This document shows positions 22,185-45,446 of a stretch of 64,000 bases of DNA, piece after piece; position 1 is the stretch's first letter; each line of letters starts with the position of its first letter. This DNA is from Candidatus Latescibacterota bacterium (GTDB taxonomy: Bacteria > Latescibacterota > UBA2968), in contig OZ242010.1 in assembly GCA_965204745.1 (NCBI GenBank), positions 5,248,001-5,312,000 on the forward strand, read 5' to 3'. The position numbers and the translations under genes are program-made. The notes beneath the pieces are model-generated. The model saw only the letters and a list, made by a program, of their open reading frames with translations, searched no databases and had not been told where the DNA came from.

Positions 22185-23534
22185 ATGGCCCAAACGAAAA
22201 TTCTATTGGTGGACGACGAGGTCGATCTGTTGCGCGGTTATCACAAGTTTTTGACCGCCGAGGGGTATGCGGTTGTCACCGCCGCATCGGGACAGGAGGG
22301 CCTCGCGCAGTTCAATGCCGAAGCCCCGGATGTGACCGTTGTGGATTTGAAGATGCCCGGCATGGATGGCATGGCGGTGCTCAAACGCATTTTGGCACGC
22401 GACCCGGATGCGGCGGTGATCGCGTTCACCGGCCATGGTAGCATCGACAAGGCCGTCGCGGCACTCAAGGCCGGCGCATCCGATTTTATCCAGAAGCCGT
22501 TTGATCTCGCCGCATTCGCCATAGCGATAGAACAGGCATTGAAGACGCGGCGGTTGAAGGCGGAAAACCGGGCGTTGAAGCAGGTGTTGGCAACGCAACC
22601 GCGGTTTGAGAACATCATCGGCAAGAGCGAGGCGATGGCGCGGGTTTTTGACCTGATGCGGAAAGTCAGCGATTTGGATGCCCCTGTGCTGATCACGGGC
22701 GAGAGTGGAACCGGGAAGGAACTGGTGGCACGCGGGATTCACGCCCACAGCCGGCGGCGTGCCGAGCCGTTTGTCGCGCTCAACTGCGGGGGCTTGCCCG
22801 ATCACTTGGTCGAAAGCGAGTTGTTCGGGCATGTCAAGGGGGCGTTCACCGATGCGAGACAGGATCGCACGGGTTTAATCGAACATGCGCGTGGGGGGAC
22901 GTTTTTCCTCGATGAAATCGGCGACTTGCCGATGCCGCTTCAGGTGAAATTTCTGCGCGTGTTGGAGGATCACCAAATTCGCAAGGTGGGCAGCAACCGC
23001 GAGGTGTCTATCGACATCCGTCTCATCTGTGCGACCCATCGGGATCTCAAGGAATTGATAGCAACCGGCGCGTTTCGGGGGGATTTGTTTTACCGGATCA
23101 ACACCATCGAGATTCACCTGCCGGCACTGCGCCAGCGTCCGGGCGATATCGAGCTTCTCGCCACGCACTTTTTGACCCACTTCGCCGAGGCTCAGGGCAA
23201 GGCGATAACCGGGCTATCGCCCGATGCGCTCGCCGTGTTGCGCGCCTATTCTTGGCCTGGCAATGTGCGGGAATTGATACATGCGATGGAACAGGTCGTC
23301 GCCCTATCCGACGGTGCGGTGATCCAGCGCGCGGATTTACCCGAAACCATCGCGCTCAAGACAGTCGAAGTCGGAGGGCCTTTGCAAGCGCGAGTCGCAG
23401 CTTATGAAAAGCAGGTGATTCGAGATGCGCTCGAGGAACACGCGGGCAATATCACGCGTACAGCCAAGGCATTGGGGTTGACGCGCAGTGGCTTGCAAAA
23501 GAAGATCGGCCGTTTGGGCGTGAGAGAGCCGTGA
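22185..23534 (+). CDS. Sigma-54-dependent NtrC/AtoC family response regulator
   Basis: REC domain ([15 protein letters not shown]), Walker [23 protein letters not shown] and a C-terminal HTH. Confidence 0.95.
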
Positions 23535-23680
23535 ACAGGGGATGCTTTATTTTGGTCAGATAATTGGCGCGTTGAAAAACGAACTGAATTTGGTTCAGGG
23601 CAAGGTGGAAGGCGAAGTGACTGCCTTCTTGGAGCATCTGGGCAAGGACCAAGGGTTCAGCGATGAGTGAGGAGCACGCC

Positions 23681-24598
23681 ATGAAAGCGATGATAGTTGC
23701 AACCTTGGTGCTGGTGCTCGCGGCCGGTTCAGGCCGGGCAGAGCGCAAGCCGCTCGACAAAATTCACCGAGAGATCAAGCCCGGTGCGACAGTCATAAAA
23801 GTGCCAAATCCAAGGCGGCGTGATGGCTATGATCTCGCTGAAAAAAAGCATGAAGTGACCTACAACGAGACGACCGGGCTTTATACCTATCGGTATTGGC
23901 AGACCGACAGCACCTATGTCGATTTGCTTTATGAACCTTCTAACCGACTGGATGTGACCGTGGCATGCACAGTGGTCTATGATGGCGAAAAGGATGAATA
24001 CACCTATACGTACCACCTCGTCAATAGCAAGGACAGTGTACAGTCCTTAGAGATATTCGCTTTAGATATAGATCGCAACCTCGTGCTTCGGACTGAATCT
24101 GAACCATGGCGTTATTACTCTACCAATGAGCCGCCGCCCGGTTCACCCAAATGGGCATTTTGGGGATCAAGAGGCAGGTACGTTCTTCCAGGCGAGTCAA
24201 TTTCTCTGACGCTCACGAGCAAATTCGGTCCGGTCATTGCAACCTGTTATTCTCAAGGTCGTGCTCAACCTGTTCAGCCATCTATTGGAGCAATAGATGA
24301 ACTTGCAGTTTATCCGCCGAATGTAGAGGGGCTGAAAGGTCAAACGCTCGCGCCCGGCAGTTTGGGGGATAGCAGTCCCAAAGCGCAGTTTGAAGCCTTT
24401 CTCGATATTGCCGAGACCTGGGGATGGGTCAACAAGGACAAAAAGGACGCGGCATTGCTCCACATTTCTAAGGGCTTAGACCAGACCGCTTTCATCGCGT
24501 TGAAGAGCGAACTGAATCTGGTTCAAGGCAAGGTGGAAGGCGAAGTGACTGCCTTCTTGGAGCATCTGGGTAAGGATCAAGGGTTCAGCGATGAATGA
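23681..24598 (+). CDS. Secreted hypothetical protein, paralog C of the 10356 gene
   Basis: Near-identical to 10356-11264 with a divergent central patch. Preceded by an orphan 3' end of another copy (about 23569-23670). Confidence 0.8.
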   Translation: MKAMIVATLVLVLAAGSGRAERKPLDKIHREIKPGATVIKVPNPRRRDGYDLAEKKHEVTYNETTGLYTYRYWQTDSTYVDLLYEPSNRLDVTVACTVVYDGEKDEYTYTYHLVNSKDSVQSLEIFALDIDRNLVLRTESEPWRYYSTNEPPPGSPKWAFWGSRGRYVLPGESISLTLTSKFGPVIATCYSQGRAQPVQPSIGAIDELAVYPPNVEGLKGQTLAPGSLGDSSPKAQFEAFLDIAETWGWVNKDKKDAALLHISKGLDQTAFIALKSELNLVQGKVEGEVTAFLEHLGKDQGFSDE

Positions 24599-24656
24599 GG
24601 CGTACATCAAAAAGCAGATGGCTGTTGTCTAACAGGCTCTCAAGGAGGGAAAGGTC

Positions 24657-27044
24657 ATGGTGAAAAATTACTTCATCGTTGGGATTCGCTATTTGATGCG
24701 GCACAGGCTCTACACCTTCATCAATCTGTTTGGGCTGGGGTTGGGGATCGCCTGCTGTCTCATGATGGCTTTGTTCGTCAAACGCGAATGGTCGGTTGAT
24801 CGCTTTCACAAAAACAAGGACGAACTCTTTCGCGTGGTGAAGCAACGGTTGCTCCCAAATGGCGAAGCGGTCGCATTCGGGACATTTGATACGCTATATC
24901 CGCCTTGGGTTGTCAACGCCTTGAAAGACGACATACCGGACGTGAGATACGCCAGTCGGTTTATGAGTGCCACCGGACAGATTACAGTAGAAAAAAACAC
25001 ATTTCGGAGGTCAGTCGGATTTGTCGATCCCGATTTTCTTGAGATGTTCACGTTTCCATTTTTGGCAGGCGATCCGGCAACCGCTTTTGTCCGTCCCGAT
25101 GGCGTGGTGCTGGCCGAAAGCCTTGCGCGGCAACTATTCGGTCATGTCACCGAGAATTACAGCACGCTGATAGGACAAGCTGTGGTGTTGCAGAAAAAGT
25201 CGTTTGTGGTGACAGGCGTCATGGCGGATGTGCCTGCGACATCGAGTCTTCAGTTCAAGCTGTTGGTTTTGGCTGAAAGCGCGGAAAGCCTTACTGGTTT
25301 TCGCAGTTTTGCGACAATGGGTTATGCTACTGGGTCTGTTAGATATGGGTCTCTCTACGTGCAAATAGACGAGGTGCCGGGCGTGCTTGACAAGTTCAAT
25401 CGCTGGGAGGAGAAAGGCAGGTTGCGAGATGATGACTTTAGACTCCTGTTGCAACCCTTGAAGGAGGTGTACTCGAATACAGAAATTCCCAATAAATACG
25501 AATCCCAAGGCAGTCAGACAGGGGTTTATATTTTGTGGGGCATCGGTTGGATTGTGTTGCTGATTGCGTGCAGCAATTTTGTGTCCCTCTCTGTTGCCGC
25601 ATCATCCGGACGCATCCGGGAAGTGGGCTTGCGGAAGGTGTTGGGCGCCAGTCAAGGACAGATTGCACGCCAATTCTGGAGCGAAACCCTCTTGTTGAGT
25701 GTTCTCGGCTTGGGTTTGGGCCTCGTGCTCGCCGAACTGTTTTTGCCCGCGTTCAACAGCTTTGTCCAGCGCGACTTGCAAATCCCCTATTTTGACGATG
25801 GCGCGTTCTTGTTTTTGTTGATTTTGTTTGTCGTTGGGCTTGTTGCCGGCGGCTATCCTGCTGTGATGCTGTCCCGGTTTCAGCCTGCCTCCGTCCTCCA
25901 GCGCGGGGGCAACCTCGGGGGGCAAAACCGTTTCACGCGCCTGTTGCTCGTGTTGCAATACACCGCGTCTATGGTGCTTCTCATCTGTACGGGTATCATC
26001 GTCCAGCAACAGGAGTATCTCAAAAACAAAAACTTGGGATACAACGAGGAACAAATCCTTATCATTGGGGGGCCTGGGAATCGAGAACTGATTCAAAGGT
26101 ATAAACGGGAGATTTTAAGGGATCCGCGCATCGCTGGCGTTGCCATCAGCGACCGCACCTTTACCAATGGCTGGTCTTCAAGGACGTGCCATTTGTCAGA
26201 TGGTTCGACAGTTAATACGCGCATCATTGGCGTGGATGCCGATTACCTCTCTACATTGGAAATCTCTCTGCTCGAAGGCCGCAATTTTTCCGAAGACCGG
26301 GCACAAGACCGGGATCAAGCGGTCTTAATCAACGAAACACTGGCAACGCGCTTAGGCGCAGAGGGAAAGGTGGGACAAATTCTGAACATCGAAGGCGGGA
26401 GCCTTAAGGATCCCGTGATCATCGGCATCGTGCGCGATTTTCACACCGATGCCCTGTACAAACCGATCCAACCCGTGGTCTTGCTGATGAGCCAATTCAA
26501 TAATCGGCCGGCGTTTTTCGTTCGCATGCGTGCCGATCACCTGTCCGAAACACTGGATATGCTCAAAGACACCTGGAAAGCCGTTGTCCCGTCAAGCCGC
26601 TTTCAATTTTCATTTTTAGATCGCAACCTGCATCGGCAGTATGAACGCGAAGAACGCTGGCGTGAGATCGTCAGCTATTCGGCCTTGTTTGCCATCGTCA
26701 TCTCGTGCTTGGGGCTGTTCGGCTTGGCTTCGCTGGCGGTTGTGCAACGCACCAAAGAGGTGGGCATTCGCAAAGCGTTGGGTGCGTCCGAGGGGAACTT
26801 GGTCTGGCTGTTGTCCAAAGATTTTGCCAAACTGCTTTTGCTCGCCAATGCCATCGCTTGGCCTGCGGCCTATTGGATCATGGACGAGTGGTTGACCACC
26901 ACATTTGCCTATCACATGGACTTGGGCATCGGCGTTTTTGTTCTCGTTGGCGCGTTGACTTATGGCATTGCCCAACTGACCATTTTGGGCCACATCCTCA
27001 AAGTGATCCGCCAAAACCCAGTCCGGGCACTCCGATATGAGTAA
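24657..27044 (+). CDS. ABC transporter permease (MacB-PCD/FtsX), second orphan copy
   Basis: RIREVGLRKVLGAS, RTKEVGIRKALGAS and NPVRALRYE. Confidence 0.9.
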   Translation: MVKNYFIVGIRYLMRHRLYTFINLFGLGLGIACCLMMALFVKREWSVDRFHKNKDELFRVVKQRLLPNGEAVAFGTFDTLYPPWVVNALKDDIPDVRYASRFMSATGQITVEKNTFRRSVGFVDPDFLEMFTFPFLAGDPATAFVRPDGVVLAESLARQLFGHVTENYSTLIGQAVVLQKKSFVVTGVMADVPATSSLQFKLLVLAESAESLTGFRSFATMGYATGSVRYGSLYVQIDEVPGVLDKFNRWEEKGRLRDDDFRLLLQPLKEVYSNTEIPNKYESQGSQTGVYILWGIGWIVLLIACSNFVSLSVAASSGRIREVGLRKVLGASQGQIARQFWSETLLLSVLGLGLGLVLAELFLPAFNSFVQRDLQIPYFDDGAFLFLLILFVVGLVAGGYPAVMLSRFQPASVLQRGGNLGGQNRFTRLLLVLQYTASMVLLICTGIIVQQQEYLKNKNLGYNEEQILIIGGPGNRELIQRYKREILRDPRIAGVAISDRTFTNGWSSRTCHLSDGSTVNTRIIGVDADYLSTLEISLLEGRNFSEDRAQDRDQAVLINETLATRLGAEGKVGQILNIEGGSLKDPVIIGIVRDFHTDALYKPIQPVVLLMSQFNNRPAFFVRMRADHLSETLDMLKDTWKAVVPSSRFQFSFLDRNLHRQYEREERWREIVSYSALFAIVISCLGLFGLASLAVVQRTKEVGIRKALGASEGNLVWLLSKDFAKLLLLANAIAWPAAYWIMDEWLTTTFAYHMDLGIGVFVLVGALTYGIAQLTILGHILKVIRQNPVRALRYE

Positions 27045-27444
27045 CCAAAATGTCCGATCATTCCGTTTCAATCCCATGCCGCTGCTGGCGAAGGAACGCT
27101 TACGACGGCGATAACCAAGCGGTAAGCCTAAAATCTCCTGCCAGCGTAAAATCCACAGGAATAGATGGTTACAACCAACTATCACTTGGGCGGCAAGCTC
27201 TGCCGATCAAGTAAAAAACGGACGTGGAGGCGTTGTAAGACGGACAAGAGGCTATAAGTGCTTGGACGCTGACCCGATGAAGCGTCAACTTAATCGTATG
27301 CGATTGAGTCGATTTCATACGATTTGAGAGAGCGGTGCGAATGCAACATGACAACACCCGTCTTGTATCTTACCTCACTCGCGTTGGAATAGGCGATTAG
27401 ATTTTCTAAGGCGAGGACCTGATCGACACGGGCACGTTCTCATT

Positions 27445-27870
27445 TCAAGATTCTTCTTCTAACACCTCAAGTAGCCTCCGAACTTTCCTCAGAGGCTCTT
27501 TTTTTTGCAATCGAAGAAGCACTGAAAGCGCGGCCCTGCCCTCTTTAGCCTCCAATAGCGTTTTCAGTTCCCCGAGTTGTTGTCTGGTAAGCACATCGGT
27601 CATGTTGCTTATGAGATCATTCAAACTGGGGTCGTCTTCTTGGAGGCAAATGATGGTCTTTTCAGCACTGGAATTGACACCCAAAAGCGCATCTACTGAA
27701 ACACCTAATGCAACCGCGATAGCAGAGAGCGTGTCGGTTCGAGGTACTTTTGTCTCTGCTTCAATTCGAGATACGGTCGCTTGGTCTATATTGGCGGCAT
27801 TTGCCAAGTTTATCTGAGACCAATTTTTGTGGCGTCTCAAGTCTCTTATTTTTCTTCCGATTGTAGGCAT
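27445..27870 (-). CDS. XRE family HTH transcriptional regulator
   Basis: IGRKIRDLRRHKNWSQINLANAANIDQATVSRIE. Confidence 0.88.
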   Translation of the reverse strand: MPTIGRKIRDLRRHKNWSQINLANAANIDQATVSRIEAETKVPRTDTLSAIAVALGVSVDALLGVNSSAEKTIICLQEDDPSLNDLISNMTDVLTRQQLGELKTLLEAKEGRAALSVLLRLQKKEPLRKVRRLLEVLEEES

Positions 27871-28228: not shown

Positions 28229-28878
28229 ACAAAACCCACTTGGCTATTTTTTTTAGCCACCCGTGGTGTAAAATTTTCAACGCAGTATAACTTTTGGAGT
28301 TCACCATGACGACCTATCGCCCTTTTAGCTCCGTTCTTCTGCTCTGCACCCTGCTCGTTGTCTGTGGCGAATCCGCCGCGCAGAATACCGCTTCAAGCGA
28401 TGCGGACCTGAGCGGCCTGACGCTCTCGGCAGGGACGCTGGCTCCGGCCTTTGCCCGCGACTCTCTCGCCTACACCGCGACCGTGGCGAACAGCATCGAC
28501 AGCCTGACCGTTATGCCGACGAGCAACCACAACGGCGCCACGATCACGGTGAACGGCACTTCGGTATCGAGTGGCAGTGCGAGCAGTGCCATCTCCCTCA
28601 GTGTGGGCGAAAACACCATTACCATAGTGGTCACAGCAGAAGATGGGAAGATGACGAAAACCTACACAGTGACCGTTGAGCGCGGCGTGAACATCCCCGA
28701 CGCCAACTTGCGTGCTGTCATTGAGGGCGCACTAGAAAAATTGAGCGGTGCGATCATTACCCCAAGTGAGATGGCGACCCTGACGACCCGCCTTGATGCT
28801 GCGTATCAGAACATTAGTGATTTGACCGGGCTGGAGTATGCAACCCGCCTGGATTCTCTGATTCTTCACCACAACCGC

Positions 28879-29445
28879 ATCTCTGATATCTCGGCCCTGT
28901 CGGGCTTAACCAGCCTGAAAGAGCTGGATCTTTGGAGCAACCGCATCTCTGATATCTCGGCCCTGTCGGGCTTAACCAGCCTGACAGCTCTGAATCTTTG
29001 GAGGAACAGCATCTCTGATATCTCGGCCCTGTCGGGCTTAACCAGCCTGACATTGCTGACTCTTTCCGGCAACCGTATCTCTGATATCTCGGCCCTGTCG
29101 GGCTTAACCAGCCTGAAAGGGCTGGATCTTCAACGCATCAACATCTCTGATATCTCTGCCCTGTCGGGCTTAACCAGCCTGACATTCCTGCGGCTTGAAG
29201 ACAACAGCATCTTTGATATCTCGGCCCTGTCGGGCTTAACCAGCCTGAAATATCTGTATATTAACAACAACCACATCTCTGATATCTCGGCTCTGTCGGG
29301 CTTAACCAGCCTGATAGAGCTGTATCTTCACGACAACCACATCTCTGATATCTCGGCTCTGTCGGGCTTAACCAGCCTGAAATATCTGTATCTTGACAAC
29401 AACCGCATCTCTGATATCTCGGCCCTGTCGGGCTTAACCAGCCTG
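28879..29445 (+). repeat. LRR array 1: 9 copies of a 39-bp constant block at 66-bp period
   Basis: ATCTCTGATATCTC(G/T)GCCCTGTCGGGCTTAACCAGCCTG separated by 27-nt variable segments. Confidence 0.95.
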
Positions 29446-30259
29446 AGCGCTCTGTATATTAAGGGTAATCCCTTGAGCTATCCTTCCTTCATTACCCACA
29501 TCCCGGCTCTAAAGCACCGAGGCGTCAATGTATACTATCATTTTCGACCCCTGGCCAGTTTGGTAAAAATCTCGGGCGATGACCAAACCGGCACGGCTGG
29601 TTCTCGCCTGTCCGATCCGCTCATCGTTGAAGTCCGGGGTGAGAACGACGTTGCCTTTGCCGGGGTGCCGGTCACTTTTTCGGTCACGGCGGGCGGTGGG
29701 TCGCTCAGTACCACAACCGATACAACCGATGCCAATGGTCGCGCCTCGACAAGGTTGACGCTGGGTGCTACGGGCGCAGACACGGTTGTAGCGGCTATCG
29801 ACGTCTCGAACATTGACAAGTCCGTGACCTTCACCACGGCAACAGGTGGGACAGCGGACCTGAAAGGCTTGACACTCTCGGCAGGGACGCTGGTTCCGGC
29901 CTTCGCCCGCGACTCTCTCTCCTACACGGCGACCGTGGCGAACAGCACAACCAGTCTGACCGTCACGCCGACGAGCAATCACAACGGTGCCACGATCACA
30001 GTGAACGGCACTTCGGTATCGAGTGGCAGTGCGAGTAGTGCCATTTCCCTCAGTGTGGGCGAAAACACCATTACCATAGTGGTTGCCGCAGAGGATGGGA
30101 TCACGACGAAAACCTACACAGTGACCGTTGGGCACGGCGTGAACATCCCCGACGCCAACTTGCGTGTTGCCATTGAGGGCGCACTGAAAAAAACGAGCGG
30201 TGCGATCATTACCCCAAGTGAGATGGCGACCCTAACCCACCTTTATGCTAGGGGGATTA

Positions 30260-31077
30260 GGTTCTGTTGACATTTTGTTTTAGAGCGATGAGCGTGGCCG
30301 CAAAAGCGAGAAAGCCTCGATAACTCGTGCTGAGTTTCTCAAAGCGAGCGAATATCCTGCGATACTGCTTCATTTTTCCAATCAACCGCTCAATCAAATT
30401 GCGTTGCTTATACCGATGGCGATCATAATCACGCGGGGTCTTGCGATAAGACCGGGGCGGAATCACGGCAACCTGTCCATGGTGAGAAAGGACGTCCAGA
30501 AACGCTTGTGAATCATAGCCCTTATCCGCGATGACAGATCGGCTCTCATACCCAGCGATTAACGCTTCGGCTTGCGTGATATCGTGGGTTTGTCCCGGTG
30601 TGAGTCGAAACCGGAGCGGGAGGCCACGCGCATCTGTGCAGAGATGGATTTTGGTGCTGAACCCGCCTCGGCTCTTGCCGAGGGCTTGCGCGGCTTGCCC
30701 CCCTTTTTTTTTGAGGCACCCGCTGCACAGGCATGAGCACGCACGACAGTGCTGTCAATGATCAGACATGCCAAGTCTGGATCAGACGTAAAATGCTGGT
30801 GCATGCGTTCCCACACGCCATACCGGCACCAGCGAGCAAAGCGTTTATAGACTGTGTTCCACTTCCCGTACTGTGCGGGCAACTGACGCCACTGACCACC
30901 CGAGCGCATCACCCACAGAACCGCTTCAATGAAGCGTTTGCAACCGGCTTCCTCGCCGACATAGACGCGAGGGCATTCGCGGATGAATGCGAGAATTTTA
31001 GGCCACTGATTCGGAGAAAGAATAAGGTTTGACATACACACAGAGTAACTCAAAATATCCCAAATGTCAACAGAACC
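30260..31077 (-). mobile_element. IS5 family (IS427-like) insertion sequence, 818 bp, two-ORF transposase
   Basis: TIRs GGTTCTGTTGACATTT / AAATGTCAACAGAACC with a TA duplication. orfA from 31035 includes WRQLPAQYGKWNTVYKRF and IIDST. An A9G6 slippery run lies at about 30698-30712. orfB includes YKQRNLIER. Confidence 0.93.
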
Positions 31078-31141
31078 TAGTGATATGACCGGGCTTGAGT
31101 ATGCAATCAGCCTGGATACGCTGAATCTTCGCACCACCAAC

Positions 31142-31531
31142 ATCTCTGATATCTCTGCCCTGTCGGGCTTAACCAGCCTGAAAGTGCTGATTATTAGCGA
31201 CAACGGCAACACCACCCCCCTCTCTGATATCTCTGCCCTGTCGGGCTTAACCAGCCTGAAAAAGCTGATTATTGGCGGCTACAGCAACACCAACATCTCT
31301 GATATCTCTGCCCTGTCGGGCTTAACCAGCCTGACATTTCTGAATCTTGCCGCCAACAACATCTCTGATATCTCTGCCCTGTCGGGCTTAACCAGCCTGA
31401 CATCTCTGGGTCTTCACTACAACCGCATCTCTGATATCTCTGCCCTGTCGGGCTTAACCAGCCTGACAGGTCTGAATCTTTCCTACAACCGCATCTCTGA
31501 TATCTCTGCCCTGTCGGGCTTAACCAGCCTG
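31142..31531 (+). repeat. LRR array 2: 6 constant blocks, variable segments 27-39 nt
   Basis: Same 39-bp block. Two variable segments are lengthened by whole NNC codons. Confidence 0.95.
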
Positions 31532-32431
31532 ACAGGTCTGGACATTAGGGCTAATCCCTTGAGCTATCCCTCCCTCACTACCCACATCCCGGCTCTCCAG
31601 AGCCGAGGCGTTTATGTAAGCTACGATACCCGCACCGTGACCAGTTTTATAAAAACCTCGGGCGATGACCAAACCGGCACGGCTGGTTCTAGCCTGTCCT
31701 ATCCGTTCAGAGTTCAAGTGTGGAGTCAGGGCAACTTTCCCGGGTTTGCCGGGGTGCCGGTCGCCTTTTCGGTCACGGCGGGCGGTGGGTCGCTCAGTAC
31801 CACAACCGATACCACCGATGCCTATGGTCGCGCCTCGACGAGGTTGACGCTGGGTGCTGCGGGCGCGAATACAGTTAAGGCAATTATCGACGTCTCGGAC
31901 ATTGACAAGTCCGTGACCTTCACCGCCACGGCAATAGATGTGACAACGGACCTGAAATTGACACTCTCGGCAGGGACCCTGAAATTGACACTCTCGGCAG
32001 GGACGCTGGTTCCGGCCTTCGATGGTTCTCTCTCCTACACGGCGACCGTGGCGAACAGCATCGACAGACTGACCGTTACGCCGACGAGCGATCACAACGG
32101 CGCCACGATCACGGTGAACGGCACTTCGGTATCGAGTGGCAGTGCGAGCAGTGCCATTTCCCTCAGTGTGGGCGAAAACACCATTACCATAGTGGTTGCC
32201 GCAGAAGATGGGACGACGAAAACCTACACAGTGACCGTTGAGCGCGGCGCGAACATCCCCGACGCCAACTTGCGTGCTGCCATTGAGGGCGCACTGAAAA
32301 AATCAAGCGGTGCGATCATTACCCCAAGTGAGATGGCGACCCTAACCCACCTTTATGCTAGGGGGATTAGTGATATGACCGGGCTTGAGTATGCAATCAG
32401 CCTGGATACGCTGTCTCTTCAACGCAGCGGC

Positions 32432-32935
32432 ATCTCTGATATCTCTGCCCTGTCGGGCTTAACCAGCCTGACAACGCTGAATCTTTACCGCAACACCAAC
32501 CTCTCTGATATCTCTGCCCTGTCGGGCTTAACCAGCCTGACAACGCTGAATCTTCAATTAAACCCCATCTCTGATATCTCTGCCCTGTCGGGCTTAACCA
32601 GCCTGAAAGAGCTGGTTCTTGTCAGCAACAACCTCTCTGATATCTCTGCCCTGTCGGGCTTAACCAGCCTGACAACGCTGAATCTTTTCGGCCCCAGCCT
32701 CTCTGATATCTCTGCCCTGTCGGGCTTAACCAACTTGGAACTTCTGGATATTGGCGGCGCCAACCTCTCTGATATCTCTGCCCTGTCGGGCTTAACTAGC
32801 CTGACAACGCTGTGGCTTCCCGGCAACCGCATCTCTGATATCTCTGCCCTGTCGGGCTTAACCAGCCTGAGAGATCTGTCTCTTCACCGCAACCGCATCT
32901 CTGATATCTCTGCCCTGTCGGGCTTAACCAGCCTG
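32432..32935 (+). repeat. LRR array 3: 8 constant blocks
   Basis: Same 39-bp block, with first codon ATC or CTC. Confidence 0.95.
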
Positions 32936-34730
32936 AAAGATCTGGAACTTAGGTTTAATCCCTTGAACTATCCTTCCCTCTCAACCCACATCCCGGCTCT
33001 CCAGAGCCGAGGCGTTGATGTATTCTATGATACCCGCACTTTGACCAGTTTGGTAAAAATCTCGGGCGACGACCAAACCGGCACGGCTGGTTCTCGCCTG
33101 TCCGATCCGTTCATCGTTGAAGTCCGGGATCAGAACGATGTTGCCTTTGCCGGGGTGCCGGTCACTTTTTCGGTCACGGCGGGTGGAGGGTCGCTCAGTA
33201 CCACAACCGATACCACAGACGCCAATGGTCGCGCTTCGACGAGGTTGACGCTGGGTGCTGTGGGCGCGAATACAGTTAAGGCAATTATCGACGTCGCGGA
33301 TATTGACAAGTCCGTGACCTTCACCGTGACGGCCGCGCAGGTGACGGGGCCTGTCACAGTGGTGACAGAACCGGGGCAAGTGACGGGTGTGACAGTCGCG
33401 CCTGGCGAGGGCTATTTGGGCGTGTCGTGGGATGCGGTGAACGGGGCGACCGGTTACAAAGTGCAGTGGAAATCCGGGGATGCGGTGTACGCCTCCGACC
33501 GTCAGCAAGTCATCGACAACGGTGGCAAGACGAGTGCGACAATCGCCGGTCTGACCGCAGGCACGGAATACACTGTGCGCGTCATCGCCACCCTGACCAA
33601 CGCCGACGATGGCCCGCCCTCGGTGGACGTGACGGGGACGCCCAGTGACAGACCGCCCTCGCCGCCCCCTGCTCCGCCCGACCCCACCCCAGACTATCTG
33701 CCATCCTTCAAAGGTTCAACTGTGACCGCGCAACGCTATCGGACGGGGACAGCCATCAACATCACCTTGCCGCAGGCAACCGGCGGCGATGAGGCACTGA
33801 CCTACGCCCTAACGCCCGCTCTGCCTTCGGGGTTGAGCTTTGACGCAAAAACGCGGGAACTGTCTGGCACGCCGGGCGAGATAATGGACGAAACCGAATA
33901 CACGCTAACTGCAACCGATACAGATGGCGATGCGACGACATTGACCTTCACGCTCGTGGTCGCAGCGGATCGGCTACCATCCTTCAGCGATGCGACGCGG
34001 GTTGCCGCACAACGCCATGAGCAAGGCACGACCATTGCGCCGCTGACCCTGCCCACTGCCACCGGTGGCGATGAGGCACTGACCTACGCCCTAACGCCCG
34101 CTCTGCCTTCGGGACTGACCTTTGACGCAAAAACGCGCGTGTTGTCCGGTACCCCACAAGAGGCACTGGACGCAACCGAATATACATTGACTGCAACCGA
34201 TTCAGATGGCGATGTAGCGACATTGACGTTCACGCTCGCGGTCATAGCGGACCGACTGCCTGCCTTTGGCGATGGGACACGGGTTGCCGCGCAACGCTAC
34301 TTCATCGGGGACAACGTCCACATGACCCTGCCCGAAGCCACCGGCGGCGATGGCACGCTGGTCTATATCCTACTGCCGTTCCTACCGAGCGGGTTGCGAT
34401 TCGACTCGGCCACGCACACGATCTCCGGCACGCCGAGCAGGGTGCTGACCGAGACCGAATACACTTTGTCGGCGTTTGATGCAGATGGCGATTTCGCCTC
34501 GCTGACGTTCACCCTTGAAGTGCAACCACTGACCGCCGACTTCAATGGCGATGGTCAGGTTAATTTTGCCGACTTCATGTCCTTTTTCGGCAAGTTTGGG
34601 ACGCGCCGAGGCGATGCGGAGTACGATGCGCGGTACGATCTCGACAGCGATGGCGAAATTGGAGCTTCCGATGGCCAGATCTTCATCGACCAATTCGGCA
34701 CTGGCGGTTGACGCACGAAAAACGATGTTC

Positions 34731-35162: not shown

Positions 35163-35270
35163 TTAATCTGCGGTTGATTTTGGGCGGGAATGTGGTATAT
35201 TGTGGTGCGGCTGCCCTTGGACGCTTTGAGCAAGCGGCCTATCCCTCACCCATATTTCAAAGGTCATATT

Positions 35271-38200
35271 ATGAAACTCTCCGAATACGCGATTGACAAA
35301 CCCATTACCACAGTGATGGCCGCGCTGAGTCTCGTGGTCATCGGATTTATCTCCCTGTTCAGATTGCCCCTCGAATACGCGCCGGACTTGCAGTATCCCA
35401 GAATGTACGTGGGGTTTTCGTATCCCTCGTCGTCGCCGGAAGAGATCGAGCGGAAAATCACCAAGCCCATCGAAGAAATGATGGGCACGATTTCCGGGAT
35501 CGAGTCCATCCGAGCGCGGTCTTATGGCAGTCGGGGGTACGTGTTCATGGAATTTGACTATGGCACGGACATGGAACTCAAGTCGATTCAAGTGCGCGAC
35601 CGCATCGATCAGGTTCGCAACTTACTGCCCGAAGACTTGGAGACCATCGAAACGCGCCGATGGGATTCGTCCGATTGGGAAATTTTGGACTACAACATGA
35701 CGTGGCTAGGCGACGATCCCTCGGAACTCGCCACCGTGTATAAAACCACCATCTTGCCCCGCTTACAACGCATTCCCGGGGTGGGCAATGTGGAAATGGA
35801 AGGCGCGGATGAAAAAATCCTCAGAGTCGATGTGGATCAAAACCGCATGCACGCGCATGGCTTGGACATTCGCACCCTCAACAGAACGATTCGGACGAAC
35901 AACATCAACATCTCGGGCGGGTACGTCACCGATGGCGGCAAACGCCTCGCGGTGCGCGCGGTCGGCGAATTTGACGAAGTCGATCAAATCCGCGATCTCG
36001 ACTTGCCCAATGGCCTCGAGATAAAAGACGTGGCGCAGGTGAGTTACGACTATCCGGAAAAGCGGTACTTCGAACGCTTGGACGGGCGAGACGCGGTCTC
36101 GATGGAAATTCGCAAAACCTCCACCGCCAATCTGGTCGAAACGTGCAGGCTGGTCAGGGCAGAAATCGAAGCCCTACAAGACGACATCGGGCGCGACAAA
36201 TTGCGCCTGCATCTGCGCCGCGACCAATCCGAAGCCGTGATCGCGGGCATCGCGGACCTGGGGCAATCGGCTATCTTGGGGGGCATGCTGGCGATTTGCA
36301 TCATCTTTGTCTTCTTGCGAAACTTCCGCAGCACGCTCATCGTCGGCTCTGCCATTCCCATTTCCGTCTTGTGCGTTTTCGTGATCATGTATTTGATGCG
36401 GCAGGTTTTTGGATCGACCATCACCTTGAACATGATCTCGATGATGGGCCTGATGGTCGCCATTGGGATGCTGGTCGATCCCGCTGTGGTGGCATTGGAG
36501 AATATCTATCGCAGGCGCTTTGACGAAGGCGACGGCGTGCGCGACGCGGCGATAGAGGGCAGCAGGGAAATCGGCATCCCGGTGCTGGCGGCCGCGCTGA
36601 CGACGATCTGCGTGTTCGTCCCCCTCATTTTTATCTCTGGCTCGTACAACACCATGTGGATGCGCGACTTTGCCATCACCGTTTGCATTTCCGTGGTCGC
36701 GGCCATGTGCGTGGCCTTGAGCCTCATTCCGCTGGCGTGTTCGCGGGCCTTTGCCTCTGCTGGCAACCGCGTGGATCTCGCGTTGAAACTCGGCTTGGGC
36801 GCGCTGTTTTGCGCGGGCGCGATCTACCTCATCCACCGGGAGGGCCTCGCGGAATCGGGCGCGTGGATCGCGGAAAACGCGCTGTGGCTTTTGGGCGGGC
36901 TCGCCACCGTGGCCATAAGCGTTTGGCTCGCACTCGGCGCGGCCGTCGCAACGCTGGCCTTTTTCTATTTTCGCCTGCGGCACCTCGGCCTCAAGGGCGT
37001 GTACGCGCGCGTCATCGGCACGACCCTGCACTATCGTTGGACCACGGTTGTGGTCGCCACGTTCATCTTGTTCAGCGGCATCTACATCTTCACCAAAATC
37101 GAAGTCCAACGCTACCGCTATCAACCCAACCGCATGGTGGGCTATACGGTGGAAATCCCGCGCACGTACGACATCGACGACGCGCTCGTCCTCTACAAAC
37201 AAATCGAAGCCATCCTGTTGCCGCACAAGGAAGAACTCGACATCGAAGCCATCAAAACCCGGTTCAGCACTCGGCGCGGCAATACGATCTATCTGTACCT
37301 CAAACCCGCTGAAGAAAGCGCGTACAGCACGGATGAAGTTCAAAAAAAGGTGACCGTGCTGTTGCCCAAAGACATCCCCGGCGTGCGCTTTAAGTCGGGC
37401 TTCAGGCGCAGGGGCAGCAGTGGCACGGGCGTGGGCATCGAAATCAAGGGCAGAAACCAGGAAGTGCTGGCGATTTTGGCCGAAGACATCCGCCTGCGAA
37501 TGGACGACATCGCGGGCATCCACACCGTCGAGACCAGCTTGGAAAGCGGCACCGAGGAAATTCGCGTGTCCGTGAACCGCACGCGGGCGCAGCAATTTGG
37601 CCTGTCGTCCCAACAAATTGCCAGCACGGTCGCCACGGCCTTGGGCGCGCGCGGGAACAGCAAGTTCAAAACGCCGGATGGGGAAATCGACATCGCCTTG
37701 CAACTGCGAGAAGAGGACCGCGCCACGCTGGACCAACTCAAAACCCTGTCTTTTGAAAGCGACCAAGGCAGCATGATTTCATTTGCCAGCCTCGCGGACT
37801 TTGAATTGACCAAAGGCCCGCAGTCTATCGAACGCCAAGATCGCATGTCCACCGTGACCGTCTTCGCCAATACCGAGGCGTCCGAGGTGCAAAAGGTCGG
37901 CTTTGAAATGCGCGACCGCATGGACGCCATCCCCTTGCCCAAGGGGTATAGCTGGCAGATGGATCGCCGGTTTCGGTACATGGCGGCTGAAGAGGGGGAA
38001 AGTAATTTCACGATGGTTTTTGCCGCGCTGCTCATCTACCTGATCATGGCGTCCCTGTTTGAATCCTACATCCACCCGTTCACGATCATGTTTTCCATCA
38101 GCTTTGCGTTTATCGGCGTGGCGCTGGGGCTTTACATTTTTGGCGTGGTGCTCGACAGCAACGCGACTTATGGGTTGCTCATCTTGTTCGGCATTGTGGT

Positions 38201-38537
38201 CAACAACGGCATTGTGCTCATCGACCACATCAACCGGTATCGCAAGCAGGGCCTGTATCGCAGAGACGCGATTTTGCGCGGGGGGCAAGATCGCCTGCGC
38301 CCCATTTTGATGACCGCCACCACGACCATTTTGGGCCTCGCGCCGCTGGTGATCCCGATGATCTACGGCAATGTGGAAGGCAATGCGCGCCGCTGGGGCC
38401 CCATCGGCTTGGTGATCATCTCCGGCCTGTCGATTTCCACGGTCCTCACTGTGGTCATCCTGCCGACCATCTACTCCCTGATGGACGATCTCTCCGGCTA
38501 CGCAAAGCGCGTCGTCGCCGTGGCAAAACGGGCATGA
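35271..38537 (+). CDS. RND family (AcrB/AcrD/AcrF) efflux permease
   Basis: AIDKPITT.., GMLVDPAVVALENI, GIVVNNGIVLID and RLRPILMTATTTILG. Confidence 0.92.
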   Translation: MKLSEYAIDKPITTVMAALSLVVIGFISLFRLPLEYAPDLQYPRMYVGFSYPSSSPEEIERKITKPIEEMMGTISGIESIRARSYGSRGYVFMEFDYGTDMELKSIQVRDRIDQVRNLLPEDLETIETRRWDSSDWEILDYNMTWLGDDPSELATVYKTTILPRLQRIPGVGNVEMEGADEKILRVDVDQNRMHAHGLDIRTLNRTIRTNNINISGGYVTDGGKRLAVRAVGEFDEVDQIRDLDLPNGLEIKDVAQVSYDYPEKRYFERLDGRDAVSMEIRKTSTANLVETCRLVRAEIEALQDDIGRDKLRLHLRRDQSEAVIAGIADLGQSAILGGMLAICIIFVFLRNFRSTLIVGSAIPISVLCVFVIMYLMRQVFGSTITLNMISMMGLMVAIGMLVDPAVVALENIYRRRFDEGDGVRDAAIEGSREIGIPVLAAALTTICVFVPLIFISGSYNTMWMRDFAITVCISVVAAMCVALSLIPLACSRAFASAGNRVDLALKLGLGALFCAGAIYLIHREGLAESGAWIAENALWLLGGLATVAISVWLALGAAVATLAFFYFRLRHLGLKGVYARVIGTTLHYRWTTVVVATFILFSGIYIFTKIEVQRYRYQPNRMVGYTVEIPRTYDIDDALVLYKQIEAILLPHKEELDIEAIKTRFSTRRGNTIYLYLKPAEESAYSTDEVQKKVTVLLPKDIPGVRFKSGFRRRGSSGTGVGIEIKGRNQEVLAILAEDIRLRMDDIAGIHTVETSLESGTEEIRVSVNRTRAQQFGLSSQQIASTVATALGARGNSKFKTPDGEIDIALQLREEDRATLDQLKTLSFESDQGSMISFASLADFELTKGPQSIERQDRMSTVTVFANTEASEVQKVGFEMRDRMDAIPLPKGYSWQMDRRFRYMAAEEGESNFTMVFAALLIYLIMASLFESYIHPFTIMFSISFAFIGVALGLYIFGVVLDSNATYGLLILFGIVVNNGIVLIDHINRYRKQGLYRRDAILRGGQDRLRPILMTATTTILGLAPLVIPMIYGNVEGNARRWGPIGLVIISGLSISTVLTVVILPTIYSLMDDLSGYAKRVVAVAKRA

Positions 38538-44227: not shown

Positions 44228-44579
44228 TAAAAATTAAAATAGTGATAGAAAAATAAAAAATCAAATTGGTATAACCTGCTTTTCTCTTTGCCCCACCTGA
44301 ACGCCCCAATCCGCGCAATCTGTTTAATCCGCGATTCAGACGAGGTGTTGCCTCTCCTTTTATCCCTTGCCAAAGGTCATCTCGGGTATTAAGTTGGTCG
44401 ATGAACTTTGACATACATCCCATCGCATGCGCGGCGTGCGGTCAATGGCGAGCAACGATCCCTCGCAGAAAGGAGGCTTATGGACGGAAATCCCAAGCGA
44501 GCAGTTGCAGCATCACGCGAGTAGTTGTAGCATCAGGTCTGTTTATTTTTTGTCTCATTCACCCCCGGAGGAAATTCCC

Positions 44580-45446
44580 ATGACGTATCGACATCCACTC
44601 TTTGCCCTGCTCTTCCTCGTTGTGTGTTTTGCCGGCTATGGCGCAAGCGATGCCGGCCATCACAAAATGCACGAAAAAAAAACCGTCACCATCCCCGACG
44701 CCAATCTGCGCGCGGTGATCGCGGATTCTTTGAAAAAGGCGAGTGATGAGGCGATCACCACGGCTGATATGGCCATGGTGACGCGCCTCGTCGCGCCGAA
44801 TGCAGGCATTGGCGATTTGACCGGATTAGAGCACGCCACCAATCTGGCACATTTGGACCTCGGCGACGCGCGCGTGGAGGAAAAGCGCGCCAATAGCAAC
44901 GACATATCCGACCTGTCGCCCCTGTCTGGCCTCACCAAGTTGAGGGTGCTGGACCTCGACCGCGCCACCTCGGTTATGGACCTCGCGCCGCTGGCCGGGC
45001 TGATGAACCTGCGAACCCTGCGCCTCAGCAACAACGAGGTAGCCGATCTGTCGCCCTTGTCTGGCGCGACCAAGTTGAGAATCCTGACGCTTGCCGGAAA
45101 CAAAAAAATCATGGACATCGAGCCGCTAGCAGGCGCGACCATGTTGCGGAACCTCAATCTGAACAACACCGGCATCTCGGACCTCGCATCCCTGTCCGGG
45201 ATGGCGGAACTGGTATCGCTGAATCTCAACAGCACCAAAATTATGGACCTCGCGCCCCTCTCGGGCTTGGCGAAGCTGAAAACCTTGAATATCAACAACA
45301 ACAAGGTCGGCGACATCTCGCCCGTGGCGGGCTTGAGCGCACTGAGCACCCTGAACCTCAGAAACAACCCATTGGACGAAGCGGCGATCAACACGCATGT
45401 TCCGGCCCTGAAGAAACGCGGGGTCAAAGTGGGCATCGAAGAATAA
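44580..45446 (+). CDS. Secreted internalin-like LRR protein
   Basis: Signal peptide, IPDANLRAVI cap and DLSPLSGLTKL repeats. Confidence 0.88.
   Translation: MTYRHPLFALLFLVVCFAGYGASDAGHHKMHEKKTVTIPDANLRAVIADSLKKASDEAITTADMAMVTRLVAPNAGIGDLTGLEHATNLAHLDLGDARVEEKRANSNDISDLSPLSGLTKLRVLDLDRATSVMDLAPLAGLMNLRTLRLSNNEVADLSPLSGATKLRILTLAGNKKIMDIEPLAGATMLRNLNLNNTGISDLASLSGMAELVSLNLNSTKIMDLAPLSGLAKLKTLNINNNKVGDISPVAGLSALSTLNLRNNPLDEAAINTHVPALKKRGVKVGIEE

Follow-up and report, generated by a model that had tools for sequence, protein, structure and literature searches.

The subject of this analysis is a gene whose product contains leucine-rich repeats (LRRs), in a 64,000-nucleotide stretch of the genome of a Candidatus Latescibacterota bacterium (positions 5,248,001 to 5,312,000 of contig OZ242010.1; hereafter the window). 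The repeat units of this gene are nearly identical at the DNA level, except for a few codons that differ from unit to unit at their first two positions. We conclude that the units probably represent a young, partly homogenised repeat family, in which purifying selection acts on the scaffold and diversifying selection on five codons of the concave face. The original prediction had attributed the pattern to a repeat-by-repeat diversifier resembling a diversity-generating retroelement (DGR), and had named recent repeat expansion combined with strong positive selection as the alternative. It is the alternative that the evidence favours. The genome (labeled G000) is a single closed contig (C1) of 5.48 Mb, 97.65% complete, and a protein-motif scan revealed 127 LRR units of the family in it, distributed over 11 loci.

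The window contains 23 of these units, in three arrays of nine, six and eight. They share a near-invariant 39-bp block, present in seven variants (10, 5, 3, 2, 1, 1 and 1 copies) that differ by one to three bases; against these 23 copies, 100 shuffles yielded none. Variation is restricted to codon positions 1 and 2, while the third base is specific to the codon column of the aligned unit. The earlier hand counts were reproduced exactly: C ends 91 of the 100 codons that follow CTT or ATT, T ends 21 of the 23 codons between CTG and CTT, and the second codon ends in G or T in 22 of the 23 units. Two further details noted earlier were likewise recovered. Three units carry extra codons (1, 3 or 4), every one of them NNC, and five units have lost the ladder Asn (ATC, ACC, AGC, CCC and GCC). 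The small, older LRR gene elsewhere in the window, suggested as a control, has no constant block at the DNA level, although only 4 of its units fitted the motif used.

At the protein level, the tandem 22-residue units with the consensus LxxLxLxxNxIxDIxxLxxLxx score above the Pfam LRR cut-off, and the arrays match the LRR_4 profile with 215 and 181 bits (cut-off 27). The domain formed by array 3 matches InlA (chain 2omz_A) with E = 1.8e-62; matches to InlB and InlH were obtained as well. Within LxxLxLxxNxI the variable residues occupy the x positions, where the original prediction had placed them; these we take to be the strand and the adjacent loop of the concave face, in line with established LRR structure. 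Judging from this structure and from the homology to InlA, the variable codons are predicted to lie on the concave, ligand-facing surface.

For the genome-wide statistics we used the 69 unique in-register units that have the block at no more than 4 mismatches. Among their two-fold Y-ending codons, column 4 has 40 T and 0 C, whereas columns 6, 7 and 9 together have 93 C and 4 T (Fisher p = 2e-30), and when the null takes both amino acid and following base into account the pattern still reaches z = 4.7 to 25; both statistics overstate independence, since LRR units share descent. Codon usage was considered as the cause and rejected. In 2,801 long open reading frames (ORFs) of the genome the two-fold pairs are near 0.5 (synonymous fractions of AAC 0.52, GAC 0.49, TAC 0.56 and CAC 0.62), with CTT accounting for 0.08 of Leu codons, and context bias leaves the z values just given. 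The genome does prefer C ahead of codons starting with A: two-fold Y-ending codons have T in 10-17% of cases before AAC and in 38-74% before CTT, a dependence consistent with avoidance of TpA across codon borders. This context bias explains the C before AAC and ATC, leaving over the T of column 4 and the rare CTT.

Change at positions 1 and 2 without synonymous change at third positions implies that the underlying process either reads a template or is selection on amino acids. Exchange between C and T at the third positions of variable codons was seen in 0 of the 38 two-fold codons in the gene, and because such exchange is almost absent, region-wide hypermutation is excluded. Parsimony counts on a tree of the 69 units point to selection. 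The five variable columns (2, 4, 6, 7 and 9) underwent 233 non-synonymous and 21 synonymous changes, corresponding to a ratio of non-synonymous to synonymous rates (omega) of 4.3, which is a lower bound because of saturation and derives from a tree that is based on 66 sites and ignores recombination. On the same tree the scaffold underwent 29 non-synonymous and 55 synonymous changes (omega 0.19). Taken singly, the variable columns have omega values of 2.2-5.5, and nearest-neighbour unit pairs show 125 differences at variable positions 1 and 2 versus 27 third-position differences in the block. Moreover, the residue repertoire is column-specific (chi-square 215, p = 4.5e-22), which is not expected from a mutator acting alike at all sites. 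The repertoires of this genome and of nine other genomes agree in five of six columns (r = 0.71-0.95), the exception being column 9 (r = 0.27).

It might be argued that positive selection is not involved at all, that the exposed codons drift neutrally and that their excess of change is only apparent, resulting from constrained synonymous sites. Omega values of about 1-3 in the orthologous comparisons described below would agree with such drift, as would the synonymous conservation of the strand segment together with the context-dependent codon bias, and the non-repeat tails of the LRR modules themselves have an omega of about 0.85. Yet in the pooled set the two-fold third bases are mixed to the same degree in the variable columns and in scaffold columns 12, 13 and 21, the tree-based omega is a minimum, and saturation at a synonymous divergence (dS) of about 0.2 is out of neutral reach. 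We therefore regard neutral drift as very improbable.

Constitutive hypermutation left no sign in recent duplicates or orthologous arrays. At 2.232/2.234 Mb lies a tandem duplicate of 1,979 nt whose copies differ at 106 sites (5.4%); the five unit pairs captured from it show differences at 4 of the 50 variable position-1/2 sites. In the same 2-kb duplicate (C1 2232239-2234700), adjacent units have reciprocal states of column 9, AAC-GGC versus GGC-AAC, which looks like exchange rather than four independent mutations. Orthologous arrays of congeners G015 and G010, which are different species and not strains of one species, are 94-96% identical and differ in length by one unit; they differ at 7 of 80 variable sites compared with 10 of 136 other third positions (best-match pairing, with 2 of the 8 pairings non-positional). 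Among positional orthologues from three species with 82-87% identity, the fraction of differing sites is 0.36-0.49 for the variable sites and 0.23-0.34 for the scaffold third positions.

The youth of the units is indicated by a synonymous divergence of about 0.04 within arrays and 0.1-0.3 between modules. For the block inside the gene, the proportion of synonymous differences (pS) is 0.043 within and 0.092 between arrays. Homogenisation between arrays, as would result from concerted evolution of blocks between modules, was not demonstrated, block pS being about equal to tail pS. These numbers bear on a serious variant of the selection reading, namely gene conversion combined with long-term balancing selection. 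According to it, the diversity is old and maintained by balancing selection, while fine-scale gene conversion among about 120 units homogenises neutral sites, third bases included, so that the units only look young. Such a history would accommodate the linkage equilibrium among variable columns, the occurrence of the same residue repertoires in different species, and the stability of the variable codons in orthologous arrays. It would also fit the lineage-specific third-base states: column 1 in this genome is ACA, GAA, AGA, ATA or AAA, with the third A kept (NNA), and NNC in the nearest congener, G018. One variable segment was indeed found on two block types 8-9 bases apart; however, it is the only clear mosaic among the 127 units, and conversion tracts would need ends between adjacent bases. 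In addition, between-module block synonymous divergence (0.10-0.53) is similar to that of the non-repeat tails (0.13-0.32), so that little extra homogenisation between arrays is needed. Taken together, we give this variant a small but real chance of being correct.

If a DGR were responsible, either one that is still active or one since lost that left a fossil, adenine-specific mutagenic retrohoming from a template rich in AAY would have diversified every LRR unit. The attraction of this explanation is evident. Columns 4, 6, 7, 8 and 9 read NNT, NNC, NNC, AAC and NNC, as AAT and AAC template codons would give; the residues used (N, S, D, G, Y, T, R, H) are similar to those that a DGR produces; and combinations of variable codons are in linkage equilibrium. 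Nevertheless, the DGR reading is contradicted on four defining features, and we consider it extremely improbable.

In the closed genome we found no DGR-type reverse transcriptase (RT), no Avd-like gene and no template. The single RVT_1 match is of the retron Ec67 / RT-Toprim type I-C (NF038237, 708 bits; PADLOC RT-Toprim_I-C, 725 bits), and the corresponding motif is QGSPCSP; the hallmark motif of DGR RTs is IGxxxSQ. The retron Ec67-family RT-Toprim protein (578 aa; L001:1369-3105, about C1 5010687-5012423) is presumably an anti-phage system. PF05635, which we take to be the Avd-like protein family, has no match in the genome. With up to 1 mismatch allowed, the genome gives 0 matches to the template implied by the original prediction; with up to 4 allowed it gives 16, every one of them a coding unit within an array. 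Nor did the search turn up a template-like copy or an AAY run adjacent to any block. Most of what the original prediction had itself named as telling against a DGR was thus found, in particular the lack of both RT and template in a closed genome.

The variation follows codon position and not adenine. The original prediction had proposed testing whether variable columns are A in the consensus; A is the commonest base at only 4 of the 13 unit sites with an entropy of at least 1 bit (69 units). Six adenines of the unit are near-invariant, among them the last base of TTA (69 of 69 units), at which a change from A to G would be silent. In column 1 it is position 2 that varies, with A retained at 1 and 3; column 2 ends in G or T, and column 4 sometimes in G. 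The differences in residue repertoire between columns also speak against a DGR, as do recent duplicates, which show single-base differences and not wholesale change. Nor does the LRR gene have a C-terminal variable region on a C-type-lectin or Ig-fold target.

The distribution across the genus leads to the same result. The LRR family has a match in all 18 congeners, whereas RVT_1 has none in 12 of them, and six of the nine genomes whose LRR units were read are among these 12. Four of the six same-genus RT loci were classified: L016 and L017 are group-II-intron-like, L021 has no NCBIfam match, and L019 of congener G016 is a canonical DGR. The latter comprises a CLec/FGE-type target with a C-terminal variable region (VR), an Avd-like ORF, an RT with the motif IGNLTSQ and a template region (TR). 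All 17 TR/VR mismatches are at TR adenines, 17 of the 33 TR adenines being changed. A genuine DGR in the genus might be counted in favour of the DGR reading, but it acts on a C-type-lectin-like gene and not on LRRs. The NNY codon signature alone is no evidence for a DGR, and the real one in the same genus supplies the contrast. Among the papers listed for both subjects together, no title or abstract reports an LRR as a DGR target.

The 23 units of the window are part of a recently expanded family of at least 120 units at 11 loci, and in the reading that we prefer ordinary point mutation would be the source of variation. Scaffold codons would be held by purifying selection, whereas at five to six codons of the LxxLxLxxNxI strand, those exposed to solvent, amino-acid changes would become fixed by diversifying selection. 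Since selection sees amino acids, positions 1 and 2 would turn over. In each column the third base would be a legacy of the founder (here A, K, T, C, C, C), partly helped by the preference of the genome for C before A-starting codons. Bursts of diversification would follow the duplication of a unit or a module; we infer that selection, and not a mutator, stands behind these bursts. The uniformity of the block within arrays would be kept by unit duplication or gene conversion, and the ligand is likely to be a host or other external surface molecule.

Several observations weigh against this explanation. Over all pairs (the three units with extra codons entered out of register), the proportion of non-synonymous differences (pN) at variable codons is 0.63, compared with a block pS of 0.04-0.09 inside the gene. 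The naive ratio obtained by Jukes-Cantor arithmetic, 15-31, would be very large if selection were the only force. Judged by its combination of variable codons, the closest other unit is no nearer than after shuffling within columns (2.95 vs 2.75 +/- 0.18), and the same comparison gives no indication of donor cassettes. Arrays of paralogous modules lack positional homology (6.65 vs 6.73 differences out of 10) and are saturated between arrays, despite a tail pS of only 0.13-0.32, which means that diversification was fast and episodic. At the same time, variable codons in recent or orthologous pairs evolve near the neutral rate (omega of roughly 1-3), so a model with a constant rate does not fit.

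A further difficulty concerns synonymous sites in the strand segment. In 80 units from five other species (loci L005, L006, L008, L010 and L011), column 5 is CTT in 78 of 80, column 4 has 51 T and 5 C, and column 6 has 28 C and 1 T, while the two-fold sites of the block are randomised (column 12, 46 T and 34 C; column 21, 42 T and 35 C). Founder inheritance does not account for such conservation across the genus. As a speculation, the cause might be that every strand conserves two codons read by wobble. The synonymous conservation of the strand segment, with the rare CTT at every repeat, could bear on co-translational folding or on recombination of repeat proteins.

Some of these observations could instead point to a mechanism that is independent of RT, perhaps codon-aware or templated, and that episodically hits the first two bases of concave-face codons. 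The naive ratio of variable non-synonymous to block synonymous divergence, the saturation of arrays at low tail divergence and the lack of donor cassettes in the shuffle would all suit such a mutator. So would the frame CTG NNT CTT NNC NNC AAC NNC ATC, which recurs with other blocks in 128 units from nine loci of nine congeners, that is, genus-wide and even where synonymous sites of the block are randomised. On the other hand, the genome contains no template, and codon-position specificity without one is hard to explain, as we know of no chemistry that tells codon positions apart in that way. That different species share the column repertoires argues for selection, no acceleration is seen in recent duplicates or in orthologues, and the neighbouring genes (10 ORFs scanned) code for transporters and regulators, not DNA-modifying enzymes. 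We consider an RT-independent mutator improbable. The corresponding general proposal is that Poribacteria-like symbionts run RT-independent episodic diversification, the conserved frame either guiding the mutator or being a selected stop-proof codon architecture that lets positions 1 and 2 vary safely. This, too, we hold to be improbable; if true, it would amount to a germline binder repertoire resembling the variable lymphocyte receptors (VLRs), with more than 100 units per genome.

Returning to the family itself, the DNA of the first ORF of the gene matches all 18 same-genus genomes and 10 of 12 genomes of a sister family. The nearest named relatives are Candidatus Poribacteria metagenome-assembled genomes (MAGs) and one Phycisphaerae MAG, with 42-49% amino-acid identity. 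One of the 11 loci, at C1 2878809-2884800, is a second LRR sub-family of 18 units. It has a block of its own, SDIAALSGLTNL, which differs from the window block at 7-8 of 36 bases; its columns 6 and 7 are again NNC, and its column 4 is mostly G- or C-ending. An LRR array of congener G016 (locus L004) consists of recent 198-bp three-unit higher-order repeats, in which the variable segments are identical in 4-6 copies and the blocks have few differences; this likewise speaks against constitutive hypermutation.

Sequence data from populations were scarce. Two exact-pattern scans of metagenome contigs gave no match. Sixteen rows of sequencing runs from 7 studies contain part of the stretch (shares 0.06-0.37); several are labelled sponge metagenome, and marine ones also occur. 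For four runs, the Logan contigs are only about 100-490 nt long, 27-28% of the pieces can be placed at two positions, and the pieces stem from paralogues and probably also from other species. These contigs do have other letters in variable columns, e.g. at 28854-28868 and 29120-29138, which are indistinguishable from those of paralogous units. Among the matches listed for the four runs, whose contigs are short, none spans an array or an empty insertion sequence (IS) site.

The domain architecture of the gene is given in Table 1. The region 28294-34711 is one gene of roughly 1,860 codons, now split by an IS; its product, a multi-domain protein that is secreted or located at the surface, contains three LRR domains of the internalin type. 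That the two ORFs are halves of one gene follows from the junction, which is uninterrupted in its paralogous copy at 32345-32365. The order of domains in the whole protein is: hydrophobic segment and Cadherin-like; array 1, Big_1 and Cadherin-like; array 2, Big_1 and Cadherin-like; array 3, Big_1, fn3, three He_PIG and the dockerin-like end. A Big_1 domain directly follows each LRR array. The dockerin-like C-terminus scores 21.8 bits, slightly below the Pfam cut-off of 22.9 bits.

Table 1. Features of the LRR gene and of the two comparison loci (window coordinates unless a locus is given)
Feature	Position	Strand	Details
5' gene half, ORF of 658 aa	28294..30270	+	N-terminal hydrophobic signal-like segment, Cadherin-like, LRR array 1, Big_1, second Cadherin-like
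LRR array 1	28852..29445	+	9 units of 66 bp (variable segment 30 bp, block 36 bp)
Module 1 tail	29446..30256	+	C-cap, Big_1, Cadherin-like; dS 0.14 and dN 0.12 versus module 2 tail
IS5-family element	30257..31080	-	about 0.82 kb; inverted ends GGTTCTGTTGACA; 2-3-bp target duplication; splits the gene
3' gene half, ORF of 1215 aa	31064..34711	+	no signal segment; LRR array 2, Big_1, Cadherin-like, LRR array 3, Big_1, fn3, 3 He_PIG, dockerin-like C-terminus
LRR array 2	31115..31531	+	6 units; two carry additional NNC codons (4 and 3)
Uninterrupted paralogous junction	32345..32365	+	the site is IS-occupied in module 1/2
LRR array 3	32405..32935	+	8 units, one with 1 extra codon
Control: older small LRR gene	44427..45446	+	no constant DNA-level block
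DGR of congener G016	L019:1-2500		VR 660-773; Avd-like ORF 918-1316; RT 1246-2373; TR 2374-2487

The inserted IS supplies the final three codons and the stop of the 5' half. It matches NF033580, with the transposase spread over two frames. With this one included, 8 copies of at least 98% identity are present, three of the others being identical over the full length, which indicates that the element was recently active; one further copy at 94% identity and several fragments were also found. One of the IS copies, at 5.227 Mb, adjoins another LRR locus.

The non-repeat tails of modules 1 and 2 (C-cap, Big_1 and Cadherin-like; 29446-30249 vs 31532-32350) have a dS of 0.14, a non-synonymous divergence (dN) of 0.12 and an omega of 0.85, from which it follows that the whole protein is fast-evolving and the LRR face is not alone in this. 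At the start of the module 2 Cadherin-like domain (31951-32008), a 27-bp tandem duplication (2.1 copies, 96% match) doubles LKLTLSAGT.

Comparison with known systems helps to define what is and what is not unusual here. Similarly to DGRs of the Bordetella phage BPP-1 type, the LRR gene is hypervariable at positions 1 and 2 of codons for ligand-binding residues and uses NNY codons that are stop-proof and favour N, S, D, G and Y. It differs from them in that its genome has no DGR-type RT, Avd-like gene or template, in that the variation is not tied to adenine, and in that an LRR scaffold with about 120 units across many genes takes the place of one C-terminal VR on a C-type-lectin or Ig fold. 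With lamprey VLRs it has in common an LRR scaffold and a repertoire of binders differing on the concave face. Lamprey VLRs are assembled somatically from donor cassettes, whereas in the present family every copy is a germline gene and donor cassettes could not be detected. The Listeria internalins InlA and InlB have the same 22-residue LRR type, and one InlA unit carries the identical string ISDISALSGLTSL. The match to InlA, however, is one of the whole LRR domain, while in our gene the block is repeated almost unchanged at the DNA level, and the context (Cadherin-like, Big_1, fn3, He_PIG and a dockerin-like end) is different.

Two published cases come closer with respect to the evolutionary regime. 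In fungal NOD-like receptors (NLRs), the WD, ANK and TPR repeats (Podospora HNWD and relatives) are described as internally conserved, with diversifying selection at a few binding-surface codons, changes in repeat number and sequence exchange (PMC4986451). As far as that account goes, internal conservation at the DNA level and a few hypervariable binding-surface codons under positive diversifying selection are common to both systems (PMC4986451). The fungal proteins differ in being eukaryotic intracellular receptors with no LRR type among those covered, and repeat-induced point mutation (RIP) has been proposed as the mutator there (PMC4986451); no RIP equivalent is known in our case. The second case is provided by surface LRR loci of Flavobacterium psychrophilum, reported to consist of units of about 22 residues, one part of which is constant while several positions on one face are hypervariable, and to have many paralogues and signs of recombination (PMC10392669). 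Both are bacterial secreted or surface LRR proteins that combine a constant part with a hypervariable face; the F. psychrophilum loci, in the portion of the account used here, are tandem arrays of small genes with a type IX secretion system (T9SS) signal and many broken fragments, in contrast to giant multi-domain genes over 11 loci (PMC10392669). The same portion describes no codon-position analysis (PMC10392669). Because a regime of conserved repeats under diversifying selection has already been published for fungal NLRs and F. psychrophilum LRRs, we regard the gene as a striking bacterial LRR instance of a known regime and not as a new mechanism. Its value lies in being a clean bacterial example of what is best documented in fungal immune receptors, i.e. 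near-identical repeats in which only the ligand-facing codons change.

The bacterium belongs to a sponge-symbiont-like lineage, in which eukaryote-like repeat proteins are suspected of mediating host interaction. In Poribacteria, LRR proteins (pfam12799) with signal peptides are reported to be abundant, beside Ig-like, fn3 and cadherin domains (PMC3909097), and our gene likewise combines LRRs with domains of these kinds. The word 'hypervariable' does not occur in the main text of that study, and the portion of it used here describes no codon-level pattern (PMC3909097).

The genes surrounding the LRR gene (22185-27870 and 35190-38537) include those for a sigma-54-dependent response regulator and a MacB/FtsX-type permease, and downstream an AcrB-family transporter. 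The 10 neighbouring ORFs scanned include no recombinase, polymerase or deaminase. Immediately upstream of the LRR gene, on the opposite strand, lies a gene for an XRE-family helix-turn-helix (HTH) protein.

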